Program-made: the position numbers and the translations under genes
In this document: positions 9,844 to 37,369 of the stretch, piece after piece
Layout of the letters: each line of letters begins with the position of its first letter
Numbering within the stretch: position 1 is the stretch's first letter
Notes under the pieces: model-generated
Database searches by the model: none
What the model was told of the DNA's origin: nothing
Seen by the model: the letters and a program-made list of their open reading frames with translations, nothing else
Origin: a virus
Taxonomy: Duplodnaviria; Caudoviricetes
Direction: 5' to 3' (one strand)
IMG/VR virus record: IMGVR_UViG_3300026549_000030
Span: 128,001 to 192,000 of that record
Length of the DNA: 64,000 nt

Positions 9844-10188
9844 ATGTTTAGAGTGGCAATTGTGGGTGGCGAAGGAACAAAAGACTACCCCAGATTTAAG
9901 AAAAAGTGTATAGAATGCCTTAAAAACAAGGTAAAGGAGGACCGTGTTATGATATATACCACGGGAGATAAGTACGTTGAAGCATTCTCCGAGCGTTACG
10001 GCATTGACACGCGTTTCTTTCCGTGTGATTTTAAGAAATATGGGAAAGACGCACTGCTAATGCGTGCAATTGATATGTTGGAAGACGCAGACGCGGTTAT
10101 CGCTTTCAATGACGGACAGAAAGACAGCCAGATTATATCAAAATTGGCAGCCGAAAAAGGGCTGCCACTTCGAAATATTAAAGGTTGA
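9844..10188 (+). CDS. SLOG/YspA-like (DUF2493-type) protein
   Basis: RVAIVGG...FPCDFKKYGKDA...MLEDADAVIAFNDG...GLPLR pattern. Confidence 0.7.
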   Translation: MFRVAIVGGEGTKDYPRFKKKCIECLKNKVKEDRVMIYTTGDKYVEAFSERYGIDTRFFPCDFKKYGKDALLMRAIDMLEDADAVIAFNDGQKDSQIISKLAAEKGLPLRNIKG

Positions 10189-10189
10189 C

Positions 10190-10624
10190 TTATTTAACCA
10201 TTATGATCAAATTCTCATAAATAGGGGCTATCATATCACCTACAGGATAATCCGTAGCTTTCTCCCATTCTCCATTTTCATTCCTGATTTCCTTTTCTTC
10301 GTCAGCAACTTTGAGCCCTCCGTGGAATGTTATCTTGAACTGTCCCTTGAATTGTCCCCTAACCTTCGTATCGCGCTTTTTCCAACGATACTCGATTACA
10401 TATCTCGGCTCGCAACTATCAGTCTCAGTTAAAATCAGGTTGCACGGAGCATTAGATATCTTAAGAATGCCCGATTCATCAACCATTGTGAATGTCACGT
10501 CGGCATTTTGAATTGCGTTGTTGAATGTTCTTACCTTGAAGAATTCGTATCTTCCGTCAAGAACCAATTCAATTCTCAATGTTGGGAGCACGCTACCCTG
10601 ATTCAAATAAAAAATTTGAGCCAT
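10190..10624 (-). CDS. BppU-like baseplate/tail accessory protein
   Basis: FYLNQGSVLPTLRIEL...VTFTM...YRWKKRDT...FKGQFKITF resembles the BppU N-terminal domain; late motif upstream. Confidence 0.55.
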   Translation of the reverse strand: MAQIFYLNQGSVLPTLRIELVLDGRYEFFKVRTFNNAIQNADVTFTMVDESGILKISNAPCNLILTETDSCEPRYVIEYRWKKRDTKVRGQFKGQFKITFHGGLKVADEEKEIRNENGEWEKATDYPVGDMIAPIYENLIIMVK

Positions 10625-10687
10625 TTTTGTTTATATAAATGTATTTTATTGTTTTATTTTTATATTTATATATAAATAGTTAAATAT

Positions 10688-12013
10688 ATGAAAAGACTAA
10701 CACAAGAGGAATTTATTAATAAATGCAAATCCATTCTTGGCGATACGTATACATATGAAAAAACAAAGTACGTAAATAACAGAACAAAAATTACAATAAC
10801 GAACAAATATGGAAAGGATATACAATGTTACCCATCAAACATTAAAAAGCTTAAAGGAAAAAAAGATAAATATGACACAGATTCATTTATAAGAAGGGCA
10901 AAACAGATATATGGTAACAAATATACATATGAAAAAACCAATTGTTCGAATTCTCATGAAAAAGTTATAATAACATGTCCAGAACACGGTGACTTCGAAA
11001 AAACGGCATACGCCTTTTTAAACGGTCAAGAATGCCCAATATGCGGAAATAGATATTCCAATGAAAAATTTGCTAAAATAGCCGAAAACGTACACGAAAA
11101 AAAATACAATTATTCAGAAGTTAATTATATCAACAACAATACAAAGGTATGCATCATTTGCCCAGAACATGGAAAGTTTTGGCAAACGCCTAATTCACAC
11201 TTAAGAGGGAGTGGCTGTCCTTTATGCTACAGAAAAGAAACTCGCGAGAAAGAATGCACAAAATTCTTAGATAAATGTAAAAAGCTATATGACGGAAAAT
11301 ATGATTACTCACAAACCGAATATATTAATTCTAATAGTAAAATTCCAATAATTTGTTCAGAACACGGAATTTTTTGGAAATCCGCAATAAAACACTCAAT
11401 GGGCCAAGCTTGTCCAATTTGCTCAAAAATAAAGCAATCAGAAGCGCTAAGACTAACAACAGACGATTTTATAAGAATGGCAATTGAGAAACATGGAAAC
11501 AAATACGATTATTCAAAAGTCGAATACACAAAATGGAATGAAAAAGTTGCTATTATTTGCAAAAAGCATGGACTATTTTTTCAAACCCCGCATTCGCATA
11601 TTAGCGGTGGTTCAGGGTGCCCAAAATGCAGCGAAAGCCATGCAGAACTCGATATAGAAAAATATCTTAAAAATAATAACATAGAATACGAAACGCAAAA
11701 AACTTTTTCATGGCTAAAAATGAAAAAAAATCTTTTTATAGACTTTTACATCCCATCAAAAAATGTTGGCATTGAATTTCAAGGCGGTCAACATTTCGTA
11801 CCAGTTAAATATGGAAACAATAGCAATGCAGACTTAATATTAGAAAAAACACAAAAAAGAGACAAACAAAAACATGAACTTTGTGAAAAAAATGGAGTGA
11901 AACTTTTATATATAATCCCACAAAAATATAAAGAAAATTTATATGGATTTTATAACAAAGAAAAAGTGTTTAATAATATTGAAGAATTATTATCTTATAT
12001 AAACGAAAAATAG
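10688..12013 (+). mobile_element. Free-standing homing endonuclease: repeated CPEHG...GCPxC zinc modules plus C-terminal PD-(D/E)xK (Vsr-like) nuclease
   Basis: About five YDYSKVxY...IICxxHG.F repeats, DFYIPSKNVGIEFQGGQHF, visibly AT-richer than neighbours. Confidence 0.8.
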
Positions 12014-12581: not shown

Positions 12582-13205
12582 CTATTCCCAAAAATTTGCA
12601 TCAATTATTCCGCCGCCGGCATTTTTAACTTCCTCGCCGTGTACGTTCATTGTTGGCGTAATCCAATGGTGATATAAACCATTGAAGTTTTCTACGCTGG
12701 GAATGGAATCCGCCCCATCGGCGTGCTTGAATTCATGCGTCCTAACAGGGTATCCCTTTTCATCAAATTTCCATCCATAGGGCATTACAAGTTCGCCATT
12801 AAGAATATCATTCTTGTCCTTCAAGATTGCATTACGATCCATTAATTCACGTGTAGCCGCCCTGAAAATTGCGGTTCCTCGTTTGTTCGTTTTAAGAAGA
12901 TTCTTTAATTCCTCGTAGCTAAGATCACGAACGTCCGAATAAGCCCCATTTGAAGATGTTACAACTTCATCTCCGCCTTCTTCGTCGTCAACTACAGCGG
13001 CGTCATTTGCATCTGCAGCTGCATTTTTTGCGTCATCGGCAGCTTCTGCGTCATCTTCTTTCTTTTTATCTTTATTGAACGCAGCCTTTGCCTTTTTATC
13101 GTTCTTTGCGGCGTTAACAATATCATCCACCCAATCCTCTTTAAGAACCTGAGAAATCGCCTCAGCTATGCATTCGTTCAATTCTTTTTCAGTTACCTTT
13201 GCCAT
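12582..13205 (-). CDS. Putative internal head protein with N-terminal targeting tag
   Basis: MAKVTEKELNECIAEAISQVLKE then an acidic Ala/Asp linker; last gene of a late operon. Confidence 0.6.
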   Translation of the reverse strand: MAKVTEKELNECIAEAISQVLKEDWVDDIVNAAKNDKKAKAAFNKDKKKEDDAEAADDAKNAAADANDAAVVDDEEGGDEVVTSSNGAYSDVRDLSYEELKNLLKTNKRGTAIFRAATRELMDRNAILKDKNDILNGELVMPYGWKFDEKGYPVRTHEFKHADGADSIPSVENFNGLYHHWITPTMNVHGEEVKNAGGGIIDANFWE

Positions 13206-13210
13206 ATCTT

Positions 13211-13849
13211 TTATATGTTTTTAGTTGCGTTATATTGTGGGGCCATATCCATTTTATACGTCGATTCGTTTGATTTGTCGTTCAACACATATACTTTCGC
13301 AGGAGAGTTCTTCAATGTTCCTCCGTATTTGACATTGTTAGAAACAAGTATGTCTACTTTGTGCTGTCCTGCGAAGCGCTTATTCATTGTGTCCTGTATT
13401 TGATAAACGCCGTCCTGAATTCCGTTGTATGTTCCTTCAATCTTAACTATATCTCCATACTTTAAGCCAAATTCACTCATCATCGTCCTTTCCATTGCGA
13501 TAATCTTATGTGCTTCTGGATTCTTTAAGTCTAATTTAAACATTGATGCGGTATGCCTGACGTCTGCGTTACATTGAGCGGGGACTGCATTATAAACAGT
13601 TACTATAACGTCATCGGCTATCATTTTCCACTCCTCCTGAGGAGCGGCGTATACAACCTCTGCTTCCATTTTCTGTTTCTGCGCGTCGTCGACCGTTTCC
13701 AAACCTGAAATGATTGATAAAGCCATTGCTACAGATATAGCTCCGACAGCAACTTTCTGAAGTAACGACTTGAAACTCTCGTTAAGAATTTGCTGTTCCA
13801 TAAGCGCGTTAAACTGCGCTTCCGTGAGGTATATCTTTTTCCCTTCCAT
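13211..13849 (-). CDS. 3D-domain (MltA/RlpA-like double-psi barrel) peptidoglycan hydrolase-like protein with N-terminal tag and hydrophobic helix
   Basis: VTVYN...TAS...IIAM...YGDIVKIEG...YQIQDTM...VDILV is the 3D signature; N-terminus MEGKKIYLTEAQ. Confidence 0.75.
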   Translation of the reverse strand: MEGKKIYLTEAQFNALMEQQILNESFKSLLQKVAVGAISVAMALSIISGLETVDDAQKQKMEAEVVYAAPQEEWKMIADDVIVTVYNAVPAQCNADVRHTASMFKLDLKNPEAHKIIAMERTMMSEFGLKYGDIVKIEGTYNGIQDGVYQIQDTMNKRFAGQHKVDILVSNNVKYGGTLKNSPAKVYVLNDKSNESTYKMDMAPQYNATKNI

Positions 13850-14798: not shown

Positions 14799-16793
14799 TT
14801 ACAGGAGCTCTTTCTCATTCTGCTTATGCGTTTCTTCAAGTTTTTCAAGATCCTTGATAGCCATATTCAATTCTTCATTGATAAGGAAGTTTTTGTCGAG
14901 TAGCGCGACGCGCTCATTACTTATCTCTTCTGGGCTCTTACGCAGTCTCCTGATATAATTGTCTATATGCTCATAACCTGACTTCGCTTCCGCAAGTGGT
15001 GCTGAACCTTCTCCTCCTCCTTCTCCTCCGAGTGGAGTTGAAGCTTCCTCCCCACCGATTGAGCCCATATCATCAGCGCCCGGCTCGCCTAAGTCGCCAA
15101 GGTCGTCACCGAAGCCGCCGCCAATAGCAGGCGCACCGCCTCCGCCGCCTAAGCCGCCCATATCTTCCTGTCCAGGAATCTGCGGACTGTACTCTGCTCC
15201 GAGTTCCCCATAGATATTATCAACGTTGTCAAAGATATGCGTTCTCTTAATAATTTCAGGAGTGCGTTGAAGTTCAATAGCAACCGCTGCTTCAAGTCTC
15301 ATTTCGTCAAGTGTTTCAGCAATTTCAGAATCGCTCTTGCCCATAATGTCCCTCTGTACTTGGTGCCAAGACATAAGCGGAATTCCACCACCCTGTTCAG
15401 CGAGCGCCGCAGTAGCTGCATTGATTCTCTTAACCAAATTATCGAGTTCCATCATCTCGATTTGATTTGATGGATTATTTAGCGATAATGTGAAGTTGGT
15501 TAAATCGTCGTCATATCCCAAGATATGAAGGTGTATGATAGCAACCTTGTTGAGTTCCATAAGGACAGCCTGTTGAAGGCTGTTCACAGTACGGCTGAAC
15601 CTGATATCAAGGATTGAAAGGTTCTGCCCCTTACCCTGAGGCTCTTGGAAATTCAAATAAGACTTAGGAACACCCAATCCGCAAAGAACCTTATTCTCCA
15701 TGAAGTTGATATCATCCATAGATGTAATGTTCTGCGCTGAATTAAGGTTGTCGATAGACGTTGGATCCTGTCCAGGCCTTACAGGAATAACATAGTCAGC
15801 ACTAACATCAAGGAAATTCTTCCTCAAGTCAATCTGTCCCGTCTGAGGGTCAATAATAGGAGCCCTCTTAATGTTATTCATAAATTCCTGAAGGAATGCA
15901 GGAACGTCATTATCGTCAATTAAGCCGACATTTACCTTGAAAATCCTTCTTTCAACACTTCTTTCGAGACGATAGAGAAGCATTCCATCTTCCATCATAG
16001 AAAGCATTCTCCAATGCCTACGTGAGTGGTTCAACCAAGAAACGCCATATGGAAGATAAAGAGAATCATTAATAAGACGGAAGTGCGCAACCTGCCAACT
16101 CTTAAACGGAATCTGCTGATTGTGTCCTTCCCAAACAAATTTAACATCGTCAGGTTTAATGTTCTGTGTTACGCCGGCGGAAGCGTATGTTCCGGAATAT
16201 GCGTTAAGCATACCATTTTCCAAACGTGTAACCTCATGAACTGGAAGTTCTCTCCACCCAGTTACTCCGTTCTTTGCGTCAATGTTAAGGAACATAAATT
16301 CGTTACCGTATTTCGCGGTAGCACGCATAATAGTCTTACTCCAAAGATTGAAGTCAAGGCGGTTAATGAACAAATCTTCGAGTATCGCCTTAATTCTTGG
16401 GGATTTTGAATAGATATTCAGGATTTTTCCCTTTGAATTGATTGTGGTTGCCTCGTCAGAAACGATTGTCAATGCGCGTCCGATTTCAGGCCATGCGTCC
16501 ATTAAGTCCGCATCACGGTACATTACCTTGACTTGGCTCGCGCCAGCCATTTGTTCCATTGAGGTTTCGTAGCCAATCTTCTGCCATTGATAAGCAAGGA
16601 GGCGCTGCTGTTTCAATTCTTTCAGCTTAGCGTCCCTTTCAGCCTTGTCGTCGGTAGAGAAAATAACCTCAGAGCTTGGTGCGATATTGTATATTGCCGA
16701 TTTTGGTTGCTGAGCCGCCGTAGCAGGATATCCACGCGTTACTCCAATCATTACATCGGATAGTGTCTGTAGTCTGGTTCTTCTTTCAGCCAT
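14799..16793 (-). CDS. Portal protein (T4 gp20-like)
   Basis: WRMLSMMEDGMLLYRLERSVERRIFKVNVG and DIRFSRTVNSLQ are gp20-family motifs. Confidence 0.93.
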   Translation of the reverse strand: MAERRTRLQTLSDVMIGVTRGYPATAAQQPKSAIYNIAPSSEVIFSTDDKAERDAKLKELKQQRLLAYQWQKIGYETSMEQMAGASQVKVMYRDADLMDAWPEIGRALTIVSDEATTINSKGKILNIYSKSPRIKAILEDLFINRLDFNLWSKTIMRATAKYGNEFMFLNIDAKNGVTGWRELPVHEVTRLENGMLNAYSGTYASAGVTQNIKPDDVKFVWEGHNQQIPFKSWQVAHFRLINDSLYLPYGVSWLNHSRRHWRMLSMMEDGMLLYRLERSVERRIFKVNVGLIDDNDVPAFLQEFMNNIKRAPIIDPQTGQIDLRKNFLDVSADYVIPVRPGQDPTSIDNLNSAQNITSMDDINFMENKVLCGLGVPKSYLNFQEPQGKGQNLSILDIRFSRTVNSLQQAVLMELNKVAIIHLHILGYDDDLTNFTLSLNNPSNQIEMMELDNLVKRINAATAALAEQGGGIPLMSWHQVQRDIMGKSDSEIAETLDEMRLEAAVAIELQRTPEIIKRTHIFDNVDNIYGELGAEYSPQIPGQEDMGGLGGGGGAPAIGGGFGDDLGDLGEPGADDMGSIGGEEASTPLGGEGGGEGSAPLAEAKSGYEHIDNYIRRLRKSPEEISNERVALLDKNFLINEELNMAIKDLEKLEETHKQNEKELL

Positions 16794-16917: not shown

Positions 16918-18048
16918 TTAGCAAGTTATCATTTTCAAAGGTTTGCCCTTCAATATTGCCTCCATACTCTCAGCTATTTCAGCCTGACGTTTCAAAATCT
17001 CCCAAGGAGACATTTGTTCGAGCCTCTTCACAAGCTCTTCCATAGCCTTATCGTATTCCTTTTCCCCCTCATTGAACAACATATTGTAGTCCATTACGGC
17101 TTCGGCGTCCATAATACTCATTTTGCCGCTCCATTTTCCACGTATCTTCGCAAGAGTTTTCTTAGCCTTGGCGAAGAACAGTTTACGGACAATAGTCTTT
17201 GTCGGCTCATTGAGGAATGCAAAGTCAATCTTATCGAGAGGAACTTGGTCAGGAGTTAAAATAACATCCCTGTTTTGTCTACGGCAATCGTCCGCATCCG
17301 CTGCGGAAGAGGTATCATAGTATGTATACCATACCTCGCAGCCAACGAGACTGATACTTCCCATTGTGTTCAGTACGGCGCCAAACGTGAGTTTAGAACC
17401 CGGTGTAGAATAGAGGTGGATAATGTGCGTTCCGTCAGGCCCGGCAGTAACCTTATAAGTTAAGTCTCCACGAAGGAGCCTATTCTTATAAGCCAAGTCA
17501 GTAGCCATATAAGCAATATCCGCACTCTGTGCAATGTAGAATCCACCGATAGGCCCGTAAGAACCGCCGCCCGCCTGTCCGTAGCCTCCCGCGAAACCGA
17601 GTGTGTCAAGACCGCCATAGTTCGCATAGAGAGCCGCCTGAGACGTAGAAGGATTGCACCACATTACGCTGTTTATCTCACGTCCTGCGGGCACCAAATA
17701 ACTTTGTTTTCCAGCCTCCACGGTGAAGAAATCTTTCTTCAACTCCCAAGGGCCTCTTTGCTGCAAGCCTGCTTCCCTTGAGAACCAATAGCTGAAATCA
17801 CGTGACATATCAAGCGTTCTGACGGACAACGCATACGCCATGTCGGTATTTGATACGTCCTTCCCATAGAGCGTAGCCCATTGACTCATAACAAGCCAAT
17901 TCTGCACCTTTTCAGCGTAATCCTCGATTGACGTTTCAAGAAGATCGCAAAGCTGCTCGTCTTTGAGTTCAACATCAACGACGGGCGCCCCAAGTTCACT
18001 TCTGCACTTTCTAAAAAGGGCTTGTATTTCGTCAGTTATCTTTATCAT
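16918..18048 (-). CDS. Neck/head-tail adaptor protein (T4 gp13-like)
   Basis: LGAPVVDVELKDEQL at the N-terminus and AKAKKTLAKIRGKW near the C-terminus are gp13-family motifs. Confidence 0.8.
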   Translation of the reverse strand: MIKITDEIQALFRKCRSELGAPVVDVELKDEQLCDLLETSIEDYAEKVQNWLVMSQWATLYGKDVSNTDMAYALSVRTLDMSRDFSYWFSREAGLQQRGPWELKKDFFTVEAGKQSYLVPAGREINSVMWCNPSTSQAALYANYGGLDTLGFAGGYGQAGGGSYGPIGGFYIAQSADIAYMATDLAYKNRLLRGDLTYKVTAGPDGTHIIHLYSTPGSKLTFGAVLNTMGSISLVGCEVWYTYYDTSSAADADDCRRQNRDVILTPDQVPLDKIDFAFLNEPTKTIVRKLFFAKAKKTLAKIRGKWSGKMSIMDAEAVMDYNMLFNEGEKEYDKAMEELVKRLEQMSPWEILKRQAEIAESMEAILKGKPLKMITC

Positions 18049-18050
18049 TT

Positions 18051-20276
18051 TTACATATTACTTTTAGCGTCTTGTATTACGTCCTCAATCTGATCAAATC
18101 CAATCCAATCGGATTCGTTGTTTATATCAATTGCGAACACCTTGTGAACCTTACTGAAATCTTCAGGATACCAAATTGCAGGAACATTCTGTGAAGGAAG
18201 AAGGACAATTCCATATAATGTCACACCGTGGCACTTAAATTGGAATATTCCATTCGTTCCGATTGAAGGCTCATTGTCAAAATTAACAGGAGAAACTATA
18301 TTGTTGTTTCTCTTATTGATATCAATAATGTTGTATCCACCGCCCTTTGTTCTAACAGTAGTTACATTTACGCTGCTGTTTCCAATATTGCAATGAACAA
18401 TCTCATCACTTACGCTTGCGAATGCGTGCCTGAACTTCTGAACAGGATCGTTGTTTCTAATAGAACGTTCCTTCGCAGATTGGAAATCGAATAAATCGCT
18501 ATGCCAAGTTTTTCCGCAGTCAGTTGTGTATTGATAAGGGATAACTTGGTCGAAATTCCAACATACCATTGACAATCCGTCGTTTCCTCCGAAATATATT
18601 GCGCCCCTTACGTTATATTTTGAGAACAGATTCTGATATTTTGCTGAATTTCCATATCTACTATCGAACATAACGTGGAGCATTCCCGTCGTTCTGTTGT
18701 ACGAACCCACATTCATAGTATCTTGACAATTCTCAATGCGTTTTGCCATCCACCCCGACATTTCAGCCCATACGCTATCAGCAACGTCCTTAGGAAATAG
18801 GAAATAAACCTGGTCCTTCAATTGATATTTTCCCTTGTAAACTTTTTTAGCCCATTCCTCGTTGAAGATAAGGAATCTATTGAATCCGCCGTAGACAATC
18901 ATTTTAACGCCGCCTGCGTGAGTTTCCTTGTCATACTTGTAATATTGAACAGAATTAGGGTTAAGAACCGCGTAAACGCCCTCTCCGTACCAAGAGCCGT
19001 CGTTACTTCCAGCGAACTGCCTTAGCTGTCCATTTGAGAATATAGACTTGAAGTTGCTTGGAGCCGTAGCCCTATAAACATAACAAGTTCTCTTAGATAC
19101 AAATTCTTTCTCGTCTTTATCCGTAATCTCCTCTTCAAGATTTTTTCTAAATATCTCTCCAAGACTTTCAACGACTGGCTGATATCTATAATTTACCTTC
19201 TCGCGGTAATCAGCCAATATCTCGTCCATATTTTCCTTATTGAAAGGAAGCCATCCTTCTTCGTCATTAAGGTTAGGACGATGAAGATTTCTTAAATCGT
19301 TTTCAGGATACCAAATGGCAACAGTCTGATATGAAGGAAGAAAAACGGTTGCATACCAAGTCATTCCTCCGTATTTAAAGCTGAATACACCGTCCCTAAT
19401 TCCGGGAGAAGTGGGCTCCGATCCAAACCACACGTCGCTAATCACTTCAGGCTTAGGAGAAACAATGTTTTCAGTATCAACCTTTGCTATATTGTATCCT
19501 TCCCTTCTGTTTCTGATGACGCAATATAATTCATTATTTGTCTGAACCTTAACTGCGCTTGACTTATCAAAATCATCGAAAAACCCCTTTAATTGAAAAT
19601 CCCAATCGCAGCCCCTTTGATAGCGTTCCCTTGCATTGATATCAAAAACGTGTCTGAATTTATTTTTAACAGCGTCTTCGCTATCATATCTTGAAACATG
19701 CTCAGCAACATCCCAAAGTATTACAGAAGAGAAATCAAATGGAAGAACCGTAGCCACATAATCGTCATACATTATTCCGCGAATACCCCATTTTCTGCAA
19801 AGGCGAACGGTGTCGTCATATTGGTTCATTCTTACCCCGTTTGATTTTATAGCCGCAGCGTCATAAGGATCCTTTACAATAGTATCAATCTGCTCATTAG
19901 GTGTTAAATTCCTTCCGTAATATTTGATAACCTGTCGTTTAATTGAAGGATAATCGTCAGCATCAAACATTATATAGTTCTTAAATCCGCCAAGAACCTT
20001 TCCGCGAAGAATAACGTCGCCATACCCCTGTGCAGCACGACGAATTCCACCACTAAGCTCGAGAGATGCATAAACGCCCTCACCGCGCATTGTTCCTCCG
20101 TCCCCCGCAAGCTGATGTTGGAATCCGTGTTCTATATAGCTTTCAAGGTGCTGAGAACGGATAGCCTTGTATATACTTGGGCACGATGCAATATCCGAGT
20201 CAGAAGGAAGATTCCTCGCCTCGGATAGTACAGCATTTCTAAATGCCTCAGAGATAATATTTTTCAATTTACCCAT
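18051..20276 (-). CDS. Tandemly duplicated ADP-ribosyltransferase/PARP-like domain protein, putatively virion-packaged
   Basis: Two ~350-aa homologous halves, each with Y[KR]A[IT]...G...GEGVYA, resembling the PARP/ART H-G-T...YG.GIY core. Confidence 0.55.
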   Translation of the reverse strand: MGKLKNIISEAFRNAVLSEARNLPSDSDIASCPSIYKAIRSQHLESYIEHGFQHQLAGDGGTMRGEGVYASLELSGGIRRAAQGYGDVILRGKVLGGFKNYIMFDADDYPSIKRQVIKYYGRNLTPNEQIDTIVKDPYDAAAIKSNGVRMNQYDDTVRLCRKWGIRGIMYDDYVATVLPFDFSSVILWDVAEHVSRYDSEDAVKNKFRHVFDINARERYQRGCDWDFQLKGFFDDFDKSSAVKVQTNNELYCVIRNRREGYNIAKVDTENIVSPKPEVISDVWFGSEPTSPGIRDGVFSFKYGGMTWYATVFLPSYQTVAIWYPENDLRNLHRPNLNDEEGWLPFNKENMDEILADYREKVNYRYQPVVESLGEIFRKNLEEEITDKDEKEFVSKRTCYVYRATAPSNFKSIFSNGQLRQFAGSNDGSWYGEGVYAVLNPNSVQYYKYDKETHAGGVKMIVYGGFNRFLIFNEEWAKKVYKGKYQLKDQVYFLFPKDVADSVWAEMSGWMAKRIENCQDTMNVGSYNRTTGMLHVMFDSRYGNSAKYQNLFSKYNVRGAIYFGGNDGLSMVCWNFDQVIPYQYTTDCGKTWHSDLFDFQSAKERSIRNNDPVQKFRHAFASVSDEIVHCNIGNSSVNVTTVRTKGGGYNIIDINKRNNNIVSPVNFDNEPSIGTNGIFQFKCHGVTLYGIVLLPSQNVPAIWYPEDFSKVHKVFAIDINNESDWIGFDQIEDVIQDAKSNM

Positions 20277-22071
20277 TTAAGTTTTCCATTTTATCGAAGA
20301 GTCTGAAGAAACCTTCCTGAACCATTTCAGGCGTTGTTTCGTCTGCAGTCTCCTCCATAACTTCCTCATCAAGTTCAAGTCCTGCGTAATGCGCAAACTC
20401 CTTGAAAGAAATAGGCTTAGGCATTCCATCTCCTAATCCTTCCTCAACAACAGCCTTAACCGTGCCGTTGTTGGCGCCAGAGCCATTGGCTCTTGATTTA
20501 GCCCTACTGTGTGACAATTTCAATAACTCGCTGTTAATTTCGCCAACAAGAGCAATGAAGTCTTGGTAGCATTTCGTTATATTTTCCTTGAATGTTTGAT
20601 CCTTACGCGCATTTCCGAGAGCAGCATTAAGGTTTGCACTATACTTCTGAACTTGGAATCCATAAACGGCTGCGAGTCCAATAGCGAATGCGTTTCCAAC
20701 CGCCTCTTTAATCGCAGGAACAACAATGTTTCTACCGGGGCAAACGTAATTCTTTGCGTAGAAATCCGCATAGTGCGCAATATCGTCACCGAGTGAACCG
20801 CCAACACCCCTTGGGCTTGTTCCGCATTTCTGTGTGCATATAGCTGAGAGAATGTTGATAATATCGGTAATTTCCTCATCACCCCTTCTTACAATCTGCT
20901 GTGGCTTATACTGAACACCAGCGTCAACAGCAGCCTTCTTGTCGTTTGTAACAGCAAGCGCGTTAGGAATACCCTGAATATTATCAGCAAGGTTAACCTC
21001 GGTATTGAACACATCCGGCATTCCGGGCCTTAACTGAGTATTGGAAATATCGTAAACTTTCTGCTTTGTAAAGTCAGGGCTCTGAGGGTTAAGAATGTTT
21101 GCAAGGAACATAACAGCCATAATCTCCGCTTGGCTCAACTGTCCCGCCTTCTTCTCAGCACGGAACACGTCATAAGGCTGACGTCCTGAGTTTGTGTTAT
21201 CGACATATCCAAGCTGAGCAGCAGCCTGATTCCATGCATTTATATCCTTGATTTTGTTGTTTGCAGTCTTGATTTCGAGGGCAAAGAGAGTCTTGTCAAC
21301 AACGTCACGGTTAAATACATTGTTCCAAGTCCACTCGTTCGTTACGAATGTGGCAGTAGGAAGATATGACTTAACCATAAGTTGATTCACAGGGCTAATT
21401 CTCCAACCACATGAATTTCCTTGCTTGATAATCTTCTGACGATTCGCGATAGATTGTGAGAAATTCACGGTTACGCCACCGACGAAGCCAAGTTTCTTTG
21501 TATAATTAGGATCCGAAAGAAGCGAAAGAATCTTATCAACGTTCATTGCCTGACGTTCCTCTGCTTTCTTTAAATCCTCATCACTCGGTGCCTCGTCAAT
21601 CCTTCCAATAATACTATTTGGAAGCGATGCAAGAGCATTCTGCTTATAATATCCGTTAGCAACGCCGTTCAATGCAGAAATATCAGAGACAATGTTCGGA
21701 AGGATTTTCTTAAATTCGTCCTCTTGTCCGGGAAGAATCGTCAAATCAATCGGAGTTGGCTCCTTAGGACCAAGCTTTTCAGTAGTATTTGGCTTTGCTG
21801 AGAGAATGCTTCCGTATTTGTTATTCCAATCCTGAATCAACTTGTTTATATGCTGATTATGAATCCACTGAAGACGCACTACAAGATTTTCATTTCCATT
21901 ATCGTCCTTTACATAAGAAGCACTTCTCGCTGTAGGAGCGACTGCATTGGGGTGATCCTTTACCGCAGTGGTTGTTCCTTTTCCACCTGCAGGTGCGCCA
22001 AATCTTTGCAATTCGTAAAGCGTTTCATTCACCATTTTCTCAATATCTGAAATGCCAAAATTTTCATTCAT
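20269..22071 (-). CDS. ArdC-N (ssDNA-binding, anti-restriction)-like domain protein
   Basis: ISPVNQLMVKSYLPTATFVTNEWTWNNVFNRDV and FTKQKVYDISNT match the ArdC-N pattern; start ATG 22071. Confidence 0.55.
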   Translation of the reverse strand: MNENFGISDIEKMVNETLYELQRFGAPAGGKGTTTAVKDHPNAVAPTARSASYVKDDNGNENLVVRLQWIHNQHINKLIQDWNNKYGSILSAKPNTTEKLGPKEPTPIDLTILPGQEDEFKKILPNIVSDISALNGVANGYYKQNALASLPNSIIGRIDEAPSDEDLKKAEERQAMNVDKILSLLSDPNYTKKLGFVGGVTVNFSQSIANRQKIIKQGNSCGWRISPVNQLMVKSYLPTATFVTNEWTWNNVFNRDVVDKTLFALEIKTANNKIKDINAWNQAAAQLGYVDNTNSGRQPYDVFRAEKKAGQLSQAEIMAVMFLANILNPQSPDFTKQKVYDISNTQLRPGMPDVFNTEVNLADNIQGIPNALAVTNDKKAAVDAGVQYKPQQIVRRGDEEITDIINILSAICTQKCGTSPRGVGGSLGDDIAHYADFYAKNYVCPGRNIVVPAIKEAVGNAFAIGLAAVYGFQVQKYSANLNAALGNARKDQTFKENITKCYQDFIALVGEINSELLKLSHSRAKSRANGSGANNGTVKAVVEEGLGDGMPKPISFKEFAHYAGLELDEEVMEETADETTPEMVQEGFFRLFDKMENLNG

Positions 22072-22229
22072 AACATTATACAATTTACTATCAATAAATA
22101 CATTTTCCTAATAAAAAGTAAGATAATTGATAGATAAACTAAAGCTATATAGAAGTCATAAATTATTATAAAAACAAGAAAAATAACATTAAAACTTCGG
22201 CATTTTGATATTTATAATAAAAAGACTAT

Positions 22230-23189
22230 ATGGGAAAATTAAAATTTACCACTGAACAATTTATTGAAGAAGCCAAAAAAATTCATGGTGACAAATTTAT
22301 TTACGACAAGGCTGAGTATCTTGGGGGAGATAAAAAAGTGTGCATAATATGCCCTGAACATGGAGAATTTTGGCAATCCGCAAAAACACATTTGCATGGA
22401 ACCGGCTGCCCATATTGCTACGGGCACTATAAACCAACGACAGAAGGCTTCATTGAGAAATTAAAAAAAATCCACGGGGATAAATATGACTATTCGAAAG
22501 TAGAGTATAAAGGCTCGTTTTCTAAAGTTCGCCTAATTTGCCCTGAGCATGGAGAATTTTGGAAAACGCCCAACTCATTATTACAGGGGCAAGGATGCAG
22601 AAAGTGCGGAACGGCTTCCGCGCAAAATAAAAACAGGATGCAGCAAGAAGAATTCATTGAAAGGGCAAAAGATATCCATCAAAACAAATATGATTATTCG
22701 AAAGTGAACTATATTAATACTGACACAAAAGTTTGCATAATATGTCCGGAGCACGGAGAATTTTGGCAGACTCCACATCATCATTTAAATGGGGTCGGAT
22801 GCCCAAAGTGCGGAAGAAATGACATTACTGAGAAGAAATTATATGAGAATGTTGCAAAAATTTTCCCAGACGCCATACGCCAATATAGACCACATTTTCT
22901 TTATAATAACGGAAAGCCATTATCGTTAGATATTTTTATACCGTCTATAAATACTGCCATTGAATATCAGGGGCGACAACATTTTGTTCCTGTGTCAAGA
23001 TATGGCGGAGACAAAGAACTTTCCAACACAAAAAGAAGAGATGCCAAAAAATTTAATTTATGCAACGAAAACAATGTGACGTTATTGTATGCAAGCTTTG
23101 AAAAAGAAGCCCCAAATACGTATTTTAAGACTATTTATAATAATGAAACAGATTTAATTAACGAATTAAAAAGGCTAAAAAATGATTGA
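22230..23189 (+). mobile_element. Free-standing homing endonuclease (three CPEHG zinc repeats + PD-(D/E)xK), overlapping the terminase start
   Basis: Three IICPEHGEFW...GC repeats; LDIFIPSINTAIEYQGRQHF; paralogue of 10688..12013. Confidence 0.8.
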
Positions 23190-27504: not shown

Positions 27505-28950
27505 TTACTTTTTAAAGAGATTGTCCATTCTGTTCATAAGGTCAATCGAAGGATCGTTGACGTTCTGATAAATGGTTGTCTCATTTAAATTTTTTGATTC
27601 AGCAACGAATTGCTTCTCAATTGCGGGTTTTGAATTTACGGATTCCTTAAGTTCTGACTTAATTGTCTCGTAAAGGTTCTTGCCCTCTGTGAGTGTCTTA
27701 ACAGCGTTGAAGCGCTCGCAGATTCTCTTCTTCTCGTCCTTGGTTGTTGTCTCATTCACAAGAATATCGACAAGCTTGCCCATATTGACGTTGAGAACAG
27801 CAGCCTCATACAGGCTCTTCTTAATCTTATTAATGCACTCAACATATTGTTTATTTTCGGCCTGAATAGCCTTTGCCTTTGCGACAATCTTAGTTACAGA
27901 TTCGCGGAGAGCCTTGTACTCACCATCCTCAGATGACTGATGCTGGTTCTGTGCACCACGATTAATGTGGTTTGTGCTCTTCTTGTTAGCGTGCTTAGTG
28001 TTAAGTCCGCTTCCGTCCTCTTCAAGATTTGCATCAAGATTTGGATTAGCAGGCTCGTTTCCACAAGCTGCGCCACACTCGTTGACTGACTTCTCGAATG
28101 GCTTGCTGTCGCCCTTTCCTGCCCATGGTTTCTCAGAGCCCTTAGGTGCGCCTTCATCCCAATCGTTAGTAGTCTTTGAATCGGCAGGCTCGTTCATATT
28201 GAACTTCTTGTCGAATACGTCCTTCTGATAAGAGTCAGTGTAACCGAGGTTTTCCTCGTTAAGCTCTTCCTCATTGTCATCATTAAGGTCGATTTCGATA
28301 TCGCCGTCCTCATCTCCGCCAAGATTAATGTCAATGTCGTCGTCTCCGGCTTCGCCCTCAATGTCAACATCTTCACCACCGTCTACATCTGCGGTATCAT
28401 CGCTTCCGGCTTCGCCACCCAGTGCATCAGGATCAAGTTCAATCACGAATTCGGCGCCAGTCTCGTCATCCTTCACAGAATAAGTTCCGTCATCTTCCTT
28501 CTTTACGAAGATTTGGTCGTCATCCCCGAGTTTGTTGTAGACTTTGAGAATTTCATCTCCATCCACGCCCGTGAAATCATAATCATTGTCACCAACCTTG
28601 TACTGTTCAAAATCTGACCATTCATCGTCATCGGCATTGCCCTCATCAGAGCCTTCCTCGCCTTCCTGTGAGAAATCCTCTTCGCCTGCTCCCTCTTCGG
28701 GTGCCTCGGCGTCGTTATCCTCACCGCCTTCATTGTCAGTTACTGCAGGAACATCCTCGGTATTGACATCCTCTACGCTATAACCGTCTTCCTGTTCCTC
28801 TTCCTCGCTATGGTCTTCCTCTTCCATCACCAAATTGGCGATAGTTTCGTTTACGATAGCACGAAGAGACTTCTCGGTGCCTTCCTGTAATGCCTTTGTA
28901 ATCTTCTCGGCATCACGGATAGTTTTTTCAGCCGTATTATTTTTTTTCAT
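27505..28950 (-). CDS. Prohead scaffold/core protein (gp22-like position)
   Basis: Very acidic, C-terminal coiled coil, located between protease and capsid genes, many LxE sites. Confidence 0.8.
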   Translation of the reverse strand: MKKNNTAEKTIRDAEKITKALQEGTEKSLRAIVNETIANLVMEEEDHSEEEEQEDGYSVEDVNTEDVPAVTDNEGGEDNDAEAPEEGAGEEDFSQEGEEGSDEGNADDDEWSDFEQYKVGDNDYDFTGVDGDEILKVYNKLGDDDQIFVKKEDDGTYSVKDDETGAEFVIELDPDALGGEAGSDDTADVDGGEDVDIEGEAGDDDIDINLGGDEDGDIEIDLNDDNEEELNEENLGYTDSYQKDVFDKKFNMNEPADSKTTNDWDEGAPKGSEKPWAGKGDSKPFEKSVNECGAACGNEPANPNLDANLEEDGSGLNTKHANKKSTNHINRGAQNQHQSSEDGEYKALRESVTKIVAKAKAIQAENKQYVECINKIKKSLYEAAVLNVNMGKLVDILVNETTTKDEKKRICERFNAVKTLTEGKNLYETIKSELKESVNSKPAIEKQFVAESKNLNETTIYQNVNDPSIDLMNRMDNLFKK

Positions 28951-29062: not shown

Positions 29063-29776
29063 TTAGTCGTTAAGATGAAGCCATTCATCAAATTCTGAGA
29101 ATTTATCTTCCTTAATAAGAGTTCCTTCCTTCTTTTCAGACTCAATGTATGGACGTAATTTCTCAGGATTTTCTTCAATCCAAGCCTGCGGAGTTGAAGG
29201 CTGACTAACTGCGTCCCAACACACAATATCGTAGTCGTCACCAACAATGAGACTTCCCATTTGCTGCGTAACACTTCCAAGCCCGCGAGAAGAAACGCCA
29301 ACCTTCAATCCAGAAAGTAACCACTGAGCGAGGATATCCGCACAAGTGTAGACTCCACCGTGGTCTCTGAATCCGTCAGAGATTGGAATTTCCATTTTAC
29401 CAACAAGGGTATGTCCTTCCCAATGGAGTTCTATGATATTAAGTGCGATTCGACTAAGGTCTATTGCGCTGCTTTCGGGGTGGTTTAACTCACCGTATGC
29501 ACGCCTCTCAGCTATTGCCGTTTGATATTTTTCAACCTCTCTCTTGAGAACGTTCTCAGGATATATACGTCCGTTAGCATTTTCAATTCCGAACTTTTGG
29601 AAAACAGCGGAAACAACAAATGGATTCGGGAGTACGCGTCTTGATGTAGCGTCCCCTGCGTTAATCGCTTCCATTATAGGCCTGTTAGCCTCCGAGTTCA
29701 TCGACACATATCCGTCATTCTCAATCAGAAGCCCGGTTCCTACTTGTCCTTTCTTAATTTCTGTTATCACATTCAT
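29063..29776 (-). CDS. Prohead core protease (T4 gp21-like, S77 family)
   Basis: NANGRIYP, GELNHP, GVSSRGLGS and WDAVSQPS motifs. Confidence 0.93.
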   Translation of the reverse strand: MNVITEIKKGQVGTGLLIENDGYVSMNSEANRPIMEAINAGDATSRRVLPNPFVVSAVFQKFGIENANGRIYPENVLKREVEKYQTAIAERRAYGELNHPESSAIDLSRIALNIIELHWEGHTLVGKMEIPISDGFRDHGGVYTCADILAQWLLSGLKVGVSSRGLGSVTQQMGSLIVGDDYDIVCWDAVSQPSTPQAWIEENPEKLRPYIESEKKEGTLIKEDKFSEFDEWLHLND

Positions 29777-29850: not shown

Positions 29851-30066
29851 ATGAAAAAGGAAAGTAATTTATCATTTGAGGGAACGGTGCTTGACGCGCT
29901 GTCCAACGCTAATTTCAGGGTGCAACTCGATAATGGCATAGAAATCATATGCCACCTATCGGGAAAAATGCGCATGAATTATATAAAGGTAATACCCGGA
30001 GATAGGGTTGGAATAGAAATGAGCCCCTACGATTTGACGAAGGGGCGAATCTTTAAGCGTCTCTAA
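29851..30066 (+). CDS. infA: Translation initiation factor IF-1
   Basis: [20 protein letters not shown]...[33 protein letters not shown]; ATG at 29851. Confidence 0.95.
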
Positions 30067-31685
30067 AATATCGACAGTAGGCTTTTCATACTCTTTGTCT
30101 TTGGGTGTCCTACTGTTTTTTTCACCATTGGCTTATATTTTGGCTTAGGCTTGAACTCAGCACTCATAAGCGTAGAGTTGTCAAGGACTATACTTGCATC
30201 CGTCTTTAGTGTATTGTTGTCGCTCGTAATCGGCTGCGTTGATAATGGCTTATGCACAGTAGAGACAAAAGGACGTTTATCAGCAATCGTACCTCTTTTG
30301 ACATGCTTTGTGCTAAGCCAGTTAAAGTAATCGCTCTTATATGTTGTCTTTGATAGATATTTGAATTTCTCACCACCATTTTTCCACAGAGCATAATTGA
30401 ACGATAATTGATCCCTATGACTGCCAACCAACAATTCAGACCACCAATCCTCCATTAACTTTATGCATACAGGGTCATTATGCTTGCGAAGCATAATGTT
30501 TGTCTGAACAAGCCCGTAGTCGGAAGGGAAACCCTCTTTCTTATATCTTTCCATTTGTGGATCAATATTTGCCGCTACGTCTTTCTTCATTCTCTTACAT
30601 ATTTCGGCTTCCCTATAAATGCATTTTCTTTGAGGGTGTTCAGGAATGAATACAACGTCGTCAGTATTGCATTCTTTTTCTATAAATTTGTTTATGTCGC
30701 CACGAATATCGACAACGCCGTCAACCCATAATGAAACCTCATACTCTGGAAGAACCTTATGCGCGTTGATTTTAACATATCGCTGCTGTTTAACTCTTGA
30801 TAAATCTTTTACCTCCAGCGGCATCTTACGAATTTCCCATATTCCTCCGCCGTTTAAATTTTCATCATCAGTAAAGCAAACATAGTCGAAATTAGGCTCT
30901 ACCTTTATATTAGTTAACAGGTTATCGTATCCACCCGTTATGCACGTGTAGACTACGTTCTTATTAACACCATCCTCTCCCCATGTTTTTTTATACCTAT
31001 TAAGCCATTCTTCCGGATTATATTCGTGCTTATTATGGATTGTTTCTTTTTCCTTTATCCAACTTCCACCGGAATAGTGTGTAACATATTTCTCAGACTT
31101 AATTTCTCTGTGCCTTAATTTAACACAGTCAAGATAGAACGATGCGCCCGTATCGAATCTATCTCCATTTCCGCCGAGCCCATGCATTTTGTTTTCATTG
31201 AAATAGTGTGCATTGTTGGCTTTGCAAATCTTCGTGTTTATAAAACATATATAAGGTAGAACCCTCTTTATCGTGGAACGTGGCTGAACAATGACTTCTC
31301 CTACGTACGCGCAGGATAAATCATACAAGTCAGAAACGTCGCCCAATAATAGTACATCGCTATCAAGAAGGATGAATGGCTCATTGTTCATTTCCATAAA
31401 CTTCTCAACAGAATAACAATGCTTAGCGCTGCCCCATCTGTTTAATTTTCCTGGGGATTTTAATCTTGAAGGATATTTCTGTAACCACTTATCAAAATCA
31501 ATAATTTGTCCATTGGTGTTGTCTATGTACACGAGATTATCACACCTATAGACAAACGGCTCCTTATCGCTGTTATCGAAAACATATATCTTAGAGTTCG
31601 GCGTAAATTTATTTACGCTCTTAACAAGACATTCTGTTAACAGCGGCGTATTATAATGTACAATTAGAAAATTAACCTTGTCCAT
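30063..31685 (-). CDS. Two-domain glycosyltransferase (GT2-like + DUF616-like)
   Basis: FLIVHYNT...FDNSD...LLDSDV, then [11 protein letters not shown]...YVCFTDD...HPQRKCIY...RDQLSFNY. Confidence 0.75.
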
Positions 31686-32847
31686 TTAACTCTTCCTCCG
31701 TGAAATACTCATCTTCAATTATGCCCCTCTCAGATTGCTTTTGACGAATATCATATTCGAAAGAAGAATAATCATCTTCGTATTTAGACTTTTCAACAAG
31801 TTTTGACAGTTCTTCCCTTCCAAGTTTTGTCCTGACAAACACTTCCCGTAATAATTCATTAAATTCATTATCTGGGAGTGAACATAAATTCATAATAAAT
31901 GTTGGAAGAACCTTTGTATCCCCTGAGACTGTATCAGAAATATAATCCCAAAGAACAGGACCTAGACGTGAGTACCAAGGGTCGTTCACAATGGCGTCAG
32001 CCTTGTTAATTGCAGCTTCTGCGCGTGAAATGTCGTCAGGTAATCCATGAGAAGCCCATAGTTCTAAGCAGCCACGAAGAATTTCTATAATAAGAATCGG
32101 CGCTATTACGGCGTGAGCCTCAATCCTCGGAGGAGTAACATCATTTCCGAGCATAACATTCACGTATCCGCCCTGTTTATGTGAATTATCTTCAATTTTG
32201 AATGGCTGAGCAAAGATAAGATAATCGTTTATTTTTATTATCTTGCTGTAAAGGTGTGGAAGCTCCTCGTCAAGTTCGAATATTGCACTAAGACTGTTCT
32301 TGAGCGCAACTTCAGCAAGACGCATTGCGCCGCCGACAATCAGCGCATCCGTTACTATTCTTTTATTCGTATCAGAATCTTCCGCCTCAATAGCGGCATA
32401 ATTTTCATATTCAAAATTTTCGTCCGTATCTGGCTCAATATGGAATTGCGTCCTGCTTGAAATTTCAGGAACAAGCTCACATTCAAATTCAACCCCGTCC
32501 CGTGGGATATCAAATAGCTCGATAACGGAGTTCATACAAATTTTTTCAAGTTGGTCACGAAGATTCTCTTCTTTTCTTAAACATTGCGCATAAAGCTTGT
32601 TCAGCTTTGTCATAACTTCCTTGTTATCATAAGAAGCTATGTCGTCAGAAAAAACATCTTTAACCTCGTTGAATCTTTTTCCAAGAACGTCAAGAATAAG
32701 CCCATCGTTCGGGAAACACGGATTACCGTTAAATGGCGTTTTACCACACTTTACATCGCTAAATAGGTGCGAAGGAATTTGTACCCTTGCACCTAGTGCC
32801 TCATTTATAATCCGTTGTTGTTTCTCGGTTACGATTACTCTTTTCAT
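31672..32847 (-). CDS. Tagged putative internal head protein, unknown function
   Basis: Start ATG 32847, MKRVIVTEKQQRIINE. Confidence 0.65.
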   Translation of the reverse strand: MKRVIVTEKQQRIINEALGARVQIPSHLFSDVKCGKTPFNGNPCFPNDGLILDVLGKRFNEVKDVFSDDIASYDNKEVMTKLNKLYAQCLRKEENLRDQLEKICMNSVIELFDIPRDGVEFECELVPEISSRTQFHIEPDTDENFEYENYAAIEAEDSDTNKRIVTDALIVGGAMRLAEVALKNSLSAIFELDEELPHLYSKIIKINDYLIFAQPFKIEDNSHKQGGYVNVMLGNDVTPPRIEAHAVIAPILIIEILRGCLELWASHGLPDDISRAEAAINKADAIVNDPWYSRLGPVLWDYISDTVSGDTKVLPTFIMNLCSLPDNEFNELLREVFVRTKLGREELSKLVEKSKYEDDYSSFEYDIRQKQSERGIIEDEYFTEEELNGQG

Positions 32848-32849
32848 AA

Positions 32850-33152
32850 TTAACGAATGTCGCCCTTCTTGAAAACAGTGCAATTCTTTTTGAGGTTGGC
32901 TAATTTTGCCTCCTGAATTTGTTTCTTTGTAACAAATTTTCCCTCAGTCAGGTCAGCGCCATCAACGCTTAATTTCACATTCGTACCGCTTCCAACCTTA
33001 GAGACGATGTTGTTGTACTGAGTTTTGAGTCCCGCCGTACTGACAGTTCCATTAGCGTCTGGCTGAGCGTCAACGGTAAGCTCGTTGCTCTGCTCCGTAA
33101 TTCTTTCTTTTAACTGAGCCAACTGCTCTTCTGTAATGTGTATGCTTTTCAT
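32850..33152 (-). CDS. Tagged small putative internal head protein
   Basis: MKSIHITEEQLAQLKERITE. Confidence 0.65.
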   Translation of the reverse strand: MKSIHITEEQLAQLKERITEQSNELTVDAQPDANGTVSTAGLKTQYNNIVSKVGSGTNVKLSVDGADLTEGKFVTKKQIQEAKLANLKKNCTVFKKGDIR

Positions 33153-33157
33153 TTCTG

Positions 33158-33886
33158 TTACTTTTTACTTCCGTTAATTTGTGTTTTACCCTTCCAAGCT
33201 TTCGGGGTTTCCTTCGGGACTTTCTTATCGCTCACTTCCTTAGGACGTTTCTCGTCAGTGCAAGCGTTCATAAGTTCCATAAGAGATTTCTTCGTATACT
33301 TCTCCTCATTAACGGGCTGCTGCATATCCATAGGCTTATCGTCCATAGGAATTTCTTCGTCACCGACAGTTGGCTCTTCTACTGGCTCTTCCTCTGTTTC
33401 GTCCGATGAAGCGGAATTTATTTTCTCAATCAATTCCTTCTTAGCCTTTTCATCAAGATTCTTGCAAGCCGCTGAAATTATCATACTTGCAACATATTTT
33501 GATAATCCTGCGTCAGGGCCCTGTTCATTATTGAATGAATTGAGGGACTGAGAAAGCTTCCCTGTCAATTGCTGAATGTAATGCTTAGGGTCCGTTTCCT
33601 CGTCAGCCTCAACACCTGCGTCAAAATTCGTATCGAACTGATTGCTTGCTCCATCGTCAGTCATTTGTGCATTCGGATCCATTGAAGGATCGATAGGAAC
33701 GCCCGCAGGGTCTCCCGTTGGGCCCGTAGGTCCCATTGGCACTGCTGCCGTCATAGGGTTTTCCTCAGGCATTGGAGGCATAGACGATTGTGCGTTACCA
33801 ACCTTGATAACCTTCCTGTTCTCTCTCAGAACTTTGTCTATGATAGAGAGAATTTGCCCCTCCTTTATCTGTATCTTTTCGCTCAT
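33158..33886 (-). CDS. Tagged acidic/Pro-rich putative head core protein
   Basis: MSEKIQIKEGQILSIIDKVLRE; TATTTATT upstream. Confidence 0.65.
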   Translation of the reverse strand: MSEKIQIKEGQILSIIDKVLRENRKVIKVGNAQSSMPPMPEENPMTAAVPMGPTGPTGDPAGVPIDPSMDPNAQMTDDGASNQFDTNFDAGVEADEETDPKHYIQQLTGKLSQSLNSFNNEQGPDAGLSKYVASMIISAACKNLDEKAKKELIEKINSASSDETEEEPVEEPTVGDEEIPMDDKPMDMQQPVNEEKYTKKSLMELMNACTDEKRPKEVSDKKVPKETPKAWKGKTQINGSKK

Positions 33887-37305: not shown

Positions 37306-37369
37306 AATGATACATTTTACTATCATAAATACATTTAAATTGCGAATAGTTGCGTATTTATTTGTGAAA

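Follow-up and report, generated by a model that had tools for sequence, protein, structure and literature searches.

A tandem ADP-ribosyltransferase-fold protein, a candidate head cargo, in the head and neck module of a T4-type jumbo phage

In the 64,000-nucleotide stretch of viral DNA analysed here (the window; bases 128001-192000 of the 242-kb IMG/VR viral contig IMGVR_UViG_3300026549_000030), an open reading frame (ORF) at 18051-20276 on the minus strand encodes a 741-residue protein made of two homologous units, each with the fold of an ADP-ribosyltransferase (ART). The best explanation overall, which we hold with modest confidence, is that this protein is a head-cargo polyprotein whose two ART-fold modules would be packed into the prohead, split by the prohead protease, and injected into the host. 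What has been observed, and what carries this proposal, is the duplication, the ART fold, the conservation of a cleavage-type motif, the presence of the protease, and synteny. Because the 242-kb contig is estimated to be only 68% complete, its source is judged to be a jumbo phage; this phage is uncultivated and known from metagenomes only.

The T4 Alt protein, which belongs to the R-S-E clade of ARTs, is a head-packaged, injected mono-ADP-ribosyltransferase and, to our knowledge, is the sole well-studied ART that travels in a phage head. Head-packaged ARTs are the first proteins that a phage deploys in its host.

The features of the protein are as follows.

18051-20276, minus strand: ORF of 741 amino acids, a tandem duplicate of a unit composed of a leader, a PARP-like ART fold, and a beta-rich Asp-box/WG-like domain
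20220-20276, minus strand: leader at the N-terminus (residues 1-19), a candidate propeptide for capsid targeting that the prohead protease would cut; its L/I-x-E sites are I8-S9-E10 and L17-S18-E19
19701-20186, minus strand: ART-fold domain of unit 1, residues ~31-192, with K37 at the His position (nucleotides 20166-20168) and Y69 as the conserved triad Tyr
19242-19580, minus strand: C-terminal beta-rich domain of unit 1, residues ~233-345
19131-19190, minus strand: inter-unit linker YRYQPVVESLGEIFRKNLEE, residues 363-382, with V-V-E370, L-G-E374, and L380-E381-E382
18522-19091, minus strand: ART-fold domain of unit 2, residues ~396-585, with R402 at the His position (nucleotides 19071-19073) and conserved Y430 and Y435
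18501-18530, minus strand: Asp-box-like motif YTTDCGKTWH (residues 583-592), where the ART domain of unit 2 passes into the beta domain
18096-18419, minus strand: C-terminal beta domain of unit 2, residues ~620-727, with a likeness to beta-propeller blades and WG repeats

Duplication, family and fold of the units

The original prediction, made from the sequence, had described two homologous halves, and BLASTP of residues 1-375 against residues 376-741 bears this out (E=1e-18, 23% identity over ~360 residues). The similarity spans the whole units rather than motifs alone and lies far above chance, and every pair of motifs that had been quoted is found in the translation. A hidden Markov model (HMM) of the unit, to which 207 units from 150 homologous proteins were aligned, matches residues 1-364 at 1.4e-55 and residues 372-740 at 4.7e-86. 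Each unit of ~365 amino acids thus begins with a short leader, continues with an ART-fold domain, and closes with a beta-rich domain of the Asp-box/WG-like type.

Searches of metagenomes yielded 28 tandem homologues of 660-809 amino acids, on contigs of up to 364 kb, together with 126 cluster representatives, many of which are single units of 330-390 amino acids. Since so many homologues are single units, the basic unit is considered to be ~340 amino acids long and the 741-residue protein to be its tandem duplicate. The 242-kb contig contains no second family copy besides this gene. By itself, the protein gives no usable Pfam or PHROG match (no PHROG at E<=0.01); DUF5866 (E=0.04), its sole Pfam row, was regarded as noise. 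Likewise, phmmer against PDB sequences returned only a chance row for the RNA polymerase alpha subunit (E=0.7), and tblastn against 50,697 phage records returned no match; no cultivated relative carries the gene, although records close to the genome of the window may be hidden from this search. In two related records (G003:C1:188097-189047 and G004:C1:74403-75353), unit 1 of the tandem homologue crosses one in-frame TGA, which could reflect a sequencing error, a split gene, or recoding.

Both sequence and structure place the units among the ARTs, in keeping with the PARP/ART likeness that had been proposed for the halves. A profile of the tandem homologues matches the catalytic domains of PARP15, PARP14, PARP10, and PARP13 (ZAP) with E=2e-6 to 1e-4. 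In this alignment, YR-A-T...GQLRQFAG...YGEGVYA lies opposite LFHGT...GFNRSCAG...YGKGTYFA of PARP, so that the beta1 motif, G-x-x-R-x-F, and Y-G-x-G-V-Y are paired with the PARP motifs H-G-T, G-F-N-R-S, and Y-G-K-G-x-Y-F. An independent profile of single units matches PARP10 at 8.5e-5, and Pfam PARP (PF00644) is the commonest match in the homologues, at sub-threshold scores (7/29 and 9/43, best E=1e-5).

An AlphaFold2 (AF2) model of the second half, with a predicted local distance difference test (pLDDT) of 85 and a predicted template modelling score (pTM) of 0.83, aligns over its residues 3-215 with more than 25 ART structures from both clades at Z 5.0-6.0 in VIA-align. Most of the matches are ART folds; those at Z 5.5-6.0 are the TASOR pseudo-PARP, tankyrase, ParT, PARP13, diphtheria toxin, and ExoA, and scabin, PARP1/2/3/4/10/15, and MbcT are found in addition. 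In the viral structure library BFVD, the best match is a phage ART-PolyVal (E=4.8e-5, probability 1.0), and other phage proteins of the ART-PolyVal, MuF-fused, and PARP-like kinds come next. The ESM Atlas provided weak leads (maximum 0.87; ART-PolyVal 0.85). A chain of the cyanophage A4 pre-ejectosome (PDB 9k3a_B; Z 5.4, root-mean-square deviation 6.2, 148 aligned residues) was too weak for use; taken as a side observation, this model-based match may hint at an ART-like domain in a podovirus ejection protein.

Several results weigh against this assignment. The protein itself has no Pfam PF00644 match and hence lies below the gathering threshold. Foldseek, which had been proposed among the checks of the fold, finds nothing at E<=0.001 against the PDB and only weak matches at E~0.1. 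The structural ART signal therefore comes from VIA-align and BFVD only, and the Z-scores are middling. However, the lines from sequence and structure converge, and the ART fold is accepted for this reason despite the middling single scores; that the units have this fold is very likely.

In the model of the second half, residues ~245-361 form a beta domain, with the Asp-box-like motif at its start, that resembles two propeller blades, with the propeller of prolyl oligopeptidase at Z 6.9 over 81 aligned residues; TolB and DPP-IV are other structural matches. Among the homologues, WG_beta_rep is matched by 5 of 43, and BNR/Asp-box Pfam families by 11 of 29 and 6 of 43.

Protease-type sites and conserved gene order

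The T4 prohead protease gp21 cleaves at the consensus L/I-X-E, and the capsid-targeting sequence of the T4 internal proteins, 10 residues long, ends in a gp21 site (PMC9026906). In T4 Alt, an N-terminal propeptide of 7 residues and a C-terminal one are removed by gp21 (PMC9026906). Sites of this form had been predicted for the N-terminus and the linker of the present protein, and they are found in the translation of both. The N-terminus, MGKLKNIISEAFRNAVLSE, offers the putative cut sites I8-S9-E10|A and L17-S18-E19|A; in the linker, V-V-E370 and L-G-E374 shortly precede a third, L380-E381-E382|E. In T4, Asp in place of the Glu of such a site blocks processing.

These sites are not peculiar to this protein. 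Some 20 residues ahead of beta1 in the ART domain, position 13 of the unit HMM is L, I, V, or M in 138 of 144 units and position 15 is E in 139 of 147 (95%). This [LI]-x-E column, with which L380-E381-E382 of the linker is aligned, occurs N-terminally in single-unit and tandem proteins alike and again in the linker that leads into a second unit; it is as conserved as the core motifs while its flanks vary. Judged by its residues, the column is the T4 gp21 cleavage consensus, and the leader recalls the 10-residue capsid-targeting sequence; we regard this family-wide signal for processing as the strongest new result. The full-length AF2 model (pLDDT 83.7, pTM 0.48) has two well-folded halves with no fixed mutual orientation, and its only segments of pLDDT<50, predicted to be disordered, are residues 14-19 and 363-382, which are the two site regions. 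Furthermore, Peptidase_S77, the gp21 family, is present above the Pfam cut-off in all five of the family-carrying viral records tested, including that of the window and one complete 392.8-kb genome. Other sampled contexts of the family contain the T4 hallmarks T4_baseplate, dNMP kinase, Gp23, and Portal_T4.

Similar leaders, with the pattern K-I-x-[IL]-T-E-x-Q...[IL]-[IL]-x-E, open several otherwise unrelated genes of the window or stand at a restart within them, as listed below, and the same type is seen on some ART-family homologues from other phages. Such a leader has the look of a transferable tag for capsid targeting, equipped with a pair of protease sites.

12582-13205, minus strand: gene with this leader
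13211-13849, minus strand: gene with this leader
31672-32883, minus strand: gene with this leader (Met 32847)
33158-33886, minus strand: gene with this leader
36943-37326, minus strand: gene with this leader (Met 37305)
37298-38176, plus strand: gene with this leader (internal Met 37796)

The region as a whole is, by its gene content, a T4-type head and neck module. The principal genes are given here.

29063-29776, minus strand: prohead protease, Peptidase_S77 (T4 gp21 family; PF03420 at 3.4e-24, above the curated cut-off)
27505-28950, minus strand: acidic scaffold-like gene, 481 amino acids
25602-27470, minus strand: Gp23-type major capsid protein, 622 amino acids
23182-25053, plus strand: large terminase (TerL)
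20269-22083, minus strand: upstream gene of the same operon, encoding ~600 amino acids; its partner in syntenic relatives (594-608 amino acids) is kept at the same position
16918-18048, minus strand: downstream gp13-like neck/head-tail adaptor candidate, 376 amino acids (PHROG 211, "head-tail adaptor Ad2", 1.1e-6, residues 6-50)
14799-16793, minus strand: T4-type portal protein, gp20 family (PF07230 at 1.5e-70; PHROG 213)

The tandem gene overlaps its upstream neighbour by 8 nucleotides and lies 2 nucleotides from its downstream neighbour, whose syntenic homologues match PF26809 (Phage_T4_gp13) weakly; with this tight spacing and the T4-type portal next in line, the location in a neck operon that had been claimed for the gene is confirmed. 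The order S77 protease, ~490-residue protein, Gp23, intervening genes, TerL(-), ~600-residue protein, tandem ART, gp13-like protein, Portal_T4, and ~300-residue protein is conserved in relatives at 55% and 33% identity.

Active site, proposed course, and rival readings

The replacement of the PARP His by Lys or Arg, as originally noted, is present in the translation: the position is occupied by K37 (IYKAI) in unit 1 and by R402 (YRATA) in unit 2. Across 184 units of the family, the beta1 position holds His in 66 (36%), Lys in 37, Arg in 32, Gln in 12, Thr in 11, Val in 11, and Ser in 8. The residue follows the clade; single units mostly have His, and a distant tandem clade has Arg or Thr in unit 1 and His in unit 2. 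In contrast to the first position, the triad Tyr of G-x-G-[IV]-Y is kept in 184 of 186 units, and Y69 and Y435 are invariant. The genes around the distant tandem clade, which is represented by a jumbo phage on a 163-kb European Nucleotide Archive (ENA) contig (locus L010, genes around 10001-12007), include those for NAPRTase/NAMPT-like, isochorismatase-family, MazG, NT5C, RNA ligase, and Macro proteins. This neighbourhood suggests, by association, a link of the family to NAD biology.

Because the Tyr and the Gly-rich core are kept, His is changed to Lys or Arg, and no acidic residue is aligned at the third position, the units appear to be either non-canonical mono-ARTs or pseudo-enzymes that bind NAD or ADP-ribose. 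The apparently non-acidic third position resembles that of the H-Y-I/L mono-ARTs and of pseudo-PARPs, and the Lys or Arg on beta1 recalls the R-S-E clade, the remainder of whose signature is absent: unit 2 has Y-R-A on beta1 but G-V-Y-A in place of S-T-S, and there is no E-x-E ahead of the catalytic strand.

Given these findings, the following course is proposed. The protein would be expressed late, together with the neck and portal genes, and its leader would direct it to the prohead core, as the capsid-targeting sequences of T4 do. There, the gp21-type S77 protease would cleave after E19 (and/or E10) and after E382 (and/or E370/E374), freeing two units of ~40 kDa that would remain in the head and would enter the host along with the DNA, as T4 Alt does. 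It is fairly likely that the protein is packaged and cut by the prohead protease; what the units might do in the host is the weakest step of the scheme. One conjecture, to which we give little credence, is that PARP-fold modules with Lys or Arg for His work in a non-canonical manner, either as hybrid R/K-Y-x ARTs with a new class of substrate or as injected decoys for NAD or ADP-ribose that would blunt NAD-based host immunity at the time of DNA entry.

A number of observations argue against this scheme, above all against its enzymatic part. In the portal-adjacent clade, unit 1 always has Lys, unit 2 mostly has Arg, and His is found in no unit. The position of the catalytic Glu (HMM position 194) is Thr in unit 1 and Ser in unit 2, and family-wide it is V, C, A, T, or S with nothing acidic aligned; this third-triad alignment is a pattern match to PARP1 and PARP10 drawn by us rather than a three-dimensional superposition. 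The loop before the catalytic strand is only ~5 residues long, unit 1 has Arg in place of Tyr63, and unit 2 has His in place of Tyr85. It is doubtful that either unit of this protein is an active ART, and the toxin role that had been suggested is conjectural. Furthermore, packaging and cleavage are inferred from the sequence, [LI]-x-E is short and could mark a structural helix ahead of the ART core, and a fixed place between TerL and gp13 would equally fit a structural protein of the head or neck.

These considerations give rise to another explanation, tentative but to be taken seriously, in which the protein is a dead pseudo-ART that serves as a structural or scaffolding part of the head interior or the neck (a core, DNA-organising, or portal-proximal component), perhaps packaged and cleaved but with no role as an effector that modifies the host. 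The loss of His in both units, with Lys fixed in unit 1 throughout the portal-adjacent clade, the lack of an acidic residue at the aligned catalytic position, and the strict retention of the gene in the structural operon from TerL to gp13/portal would all be explained, and the best structural and sequence matches include the TASOR pseudo-PARP and the inactive PARP13. However, the Tyr that stacks on nicotinamide, with its G-x-G-V-Y core, hardly varies (184/186); the replacements are not random but are mostly Lys or Arg, the type of residue that R-S-E ARTs have at that position; and His-keeping relatives lie among NAD-salvage and Macro genes, which suggests a role connected with NAD or ADP-ribose.

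It has also to be considered that the protein might be an unpackaged cytoplasmic late protein whose units stay joined. In that case, [LI]-x-E would be part of an N-terminal helix that the protein requires to fold or oligomerise, and the protein might, for example, modify phage or host proteins late in infection. The leader is indeed predicted to be helical (H2-17, H366-379), [LI]-x-E is frequent by chance in acidic helical segments, and single-unit relatives are found outside structural modules, adjoining genes for a methyltransferase, dNMP kinase, and thioredoxin. Nevertheless, the leader helices have a pLDDT of 33-57 and are not packed against the domain, the motif (95% E) is conserved like the core motifs while its flanks are variable, and the same type of leader is borne by unrelated proteins of the source phage. 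As to the position of the single-unit genes, the T4 alt gene likewise sits away from the head genes. Consequently, we consider this explanation improbable.

Finally, that there is no ART at all and the PARP likeness is a local coincidence of motifs on an unrelated alpha/beta fold is highly improbable, since, although the protein alone lacks a Pfam match, Foldseek against the PDB is not significant, and Z 5-6 falls within the "common arrangement" range of VIA-align, two different family profiles match PARP catalytic domains at the H and Y motifs, 16 homologues individually match Pfam PARP, the structural match lists are dominated by ART families of both clades, and the best viral match is ART-PolyVal with a probability of 1.0.

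Known systems, other features of the locus, and significance

The comparison with T4 Alt is instructive for the cargo proposal. Both proteins have an ART fold and come from a T4-type myovirus with an S77 prohead protease, they are of similar size (682 amino acids for Alt, 741 here), and each has an N-terminal propeptide ending in L/I-x-E, predicted in the present case; the predicted route of loading into the prohead core, trimming, and injection is also that of Alt (PMC9026906). In contrast, the protein studied here is PARP-like (H-Y-x clade) with its His replaced and has no sequence homology to the R-S-E enzyme Alt, and it consists of two tandem copies of one unit, separated by a second site, with its gene inside the neck/portal operon. 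Homology to Alt/VIP2 was rejected, as there is no PHROG (E<=0.01), no Pfam match of the exotoxin or Alt type, and no tblastn match in the 50,697 phage records. The original description of the protein as Alt-like thus fails if it is taken to mean an Alt homologue; by analogy, T4 Alt is a functional counterpart.

The closest sequence-profile and structural matches are the catalytic domains of the mono-ARTs PARP10/14/15 (H-Y-I/L), the inactive PARP13/ZAP, and the TASOR pseudo-PARP. These domains have in common with the phage units the beta1 motif Y-[H]-x-T, G-F-x-R-x-F, Y-G-x-G-V-Y, and, by the pattern alignment, an apparently non-acidic third triad position. Unlike them, the units have Lys or Arg for His, a large helical insertion between the Tyr motif and the last strands, and a very short acceptor loop; they score under the Pfam PARP threshold and occur in a phage setting with a leader and an Asp-box/WG beta domain.

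Among phage proteins, virion-delivered ARTs have been described within polyvalent or MuF-fused proteins (Iyer et al. 2017, PMC5512222; Iyer et al. 2022, PMC9503650). ART-PolyVal (PF18760) is the best viral structural match, and the proposal made here follows the reasoning applied to such proteins, in which myovirus ARTs beside portal or terminase genes are inferred to be packed in the head and injected. None of the 72 family sequences scanned (29 + 43) matches Pfam PF18760, and the likeness is at the level of the fold only. Unlike ART-PolyVal, the protein is neither part of a large multi-enzyme polyvalent protein nor fused to MuF or portal, and its proposed delivery would depend on a T4-type leader and protease sites. 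In this respect it is like the T4 internal proteins IPI-III, which have a short leader ending in I/L-x-E: MGKLKNIISE is exactly 10 residues long and is followed by Ala, and kindred leaders are present on unrelated proteins of the phage. The leader cannot be aligned with those of T4, however, and a second, internal copy of the site separates the two domains. A survey of viral NAD and ADP-ribose proteins has found that phages often encode PARP-type and other H-Y-[EDQ] ARTs, that ARTs are enriched in myoviruses, and that those beside terminase, portal, and capsid genes are probably head-packaged and injected (PMC9503650).

Some further observations concern the surrounding genes. The upstream gene (20269-22083) has no Pfam match at E<=1 by hmmscan and no PHROG match; an ArdC-N-like label was not used for it, given the hmmscan result. 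Its product ends in FFRLFDKMENL, similar to the end of the acidic scaffold-like protein, IDLMNRMDNLF, and this C-terminal motif might be a shared docking element. The best Gp23-model match of the major capsid protein (two stretches were reported) spans only residues 369-609; the N-terminal ~360 amino acids outside it may be a long propeptide or an insertion domain. The nearest cultivated portals are those of Microcystis phage Mel-JY01 and of Flavobacterium "immuto" phages, at 36-37% identity. Three other genes lie around the module.

10688-12013, plus strand: HNH/homing-endonuclease paralogue (PHROG 559, 1.5e-79)
22230-23189, plus strand: HNH/homing-endonuclease paralogue (PHROG 559, 4.1e-65)
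30063-31685, minus strand: glycosyltransferase-like gene, 540 amino acids (PHROG 26101, 7.9e-30)

The two endonuclease paralogues flank the head/neck block on the opposite strand, and the second extends into the beginning of the large terminase gene. The glycosyltransferase-like gene, ~290 nucleotides from the prohead protease gene and on the same strand, ends the run of head genes; in a relative, its place is taken by a gene with a TOD1_MUCI70 domain.

The principle that a phage ART can be packaged in the head is already known (T4 Alt; PMC9503650). New, as read from the sequences, would be an unnamed family that combines an ART with an Asp-box/WG domain and a leader, the family-wide conservation of an S77-type site, the systematic loss of His in the portal-adjacent clade, and a tandem form with an internal site that is probably a two-unit cargo polyprotein. 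If this is true, the Alt principle would extend to PARP-like folds in uncultivated jumbo phages, and a testable sequence rule, a leader plus [L/I]-x-E before each unit, would predict capsid cargo and the splitting of polyproteins by S77 proteases. In addition, the natural series of His, Lys, Arg, Gln, and Thr at the NAD-binding position could reveal how much drift the ART pocket tolerates while still binding or using NAD, and the leader could be used to tag foreign proteins for loading into such capsids, as the T4 capsid-targeting sequence does.

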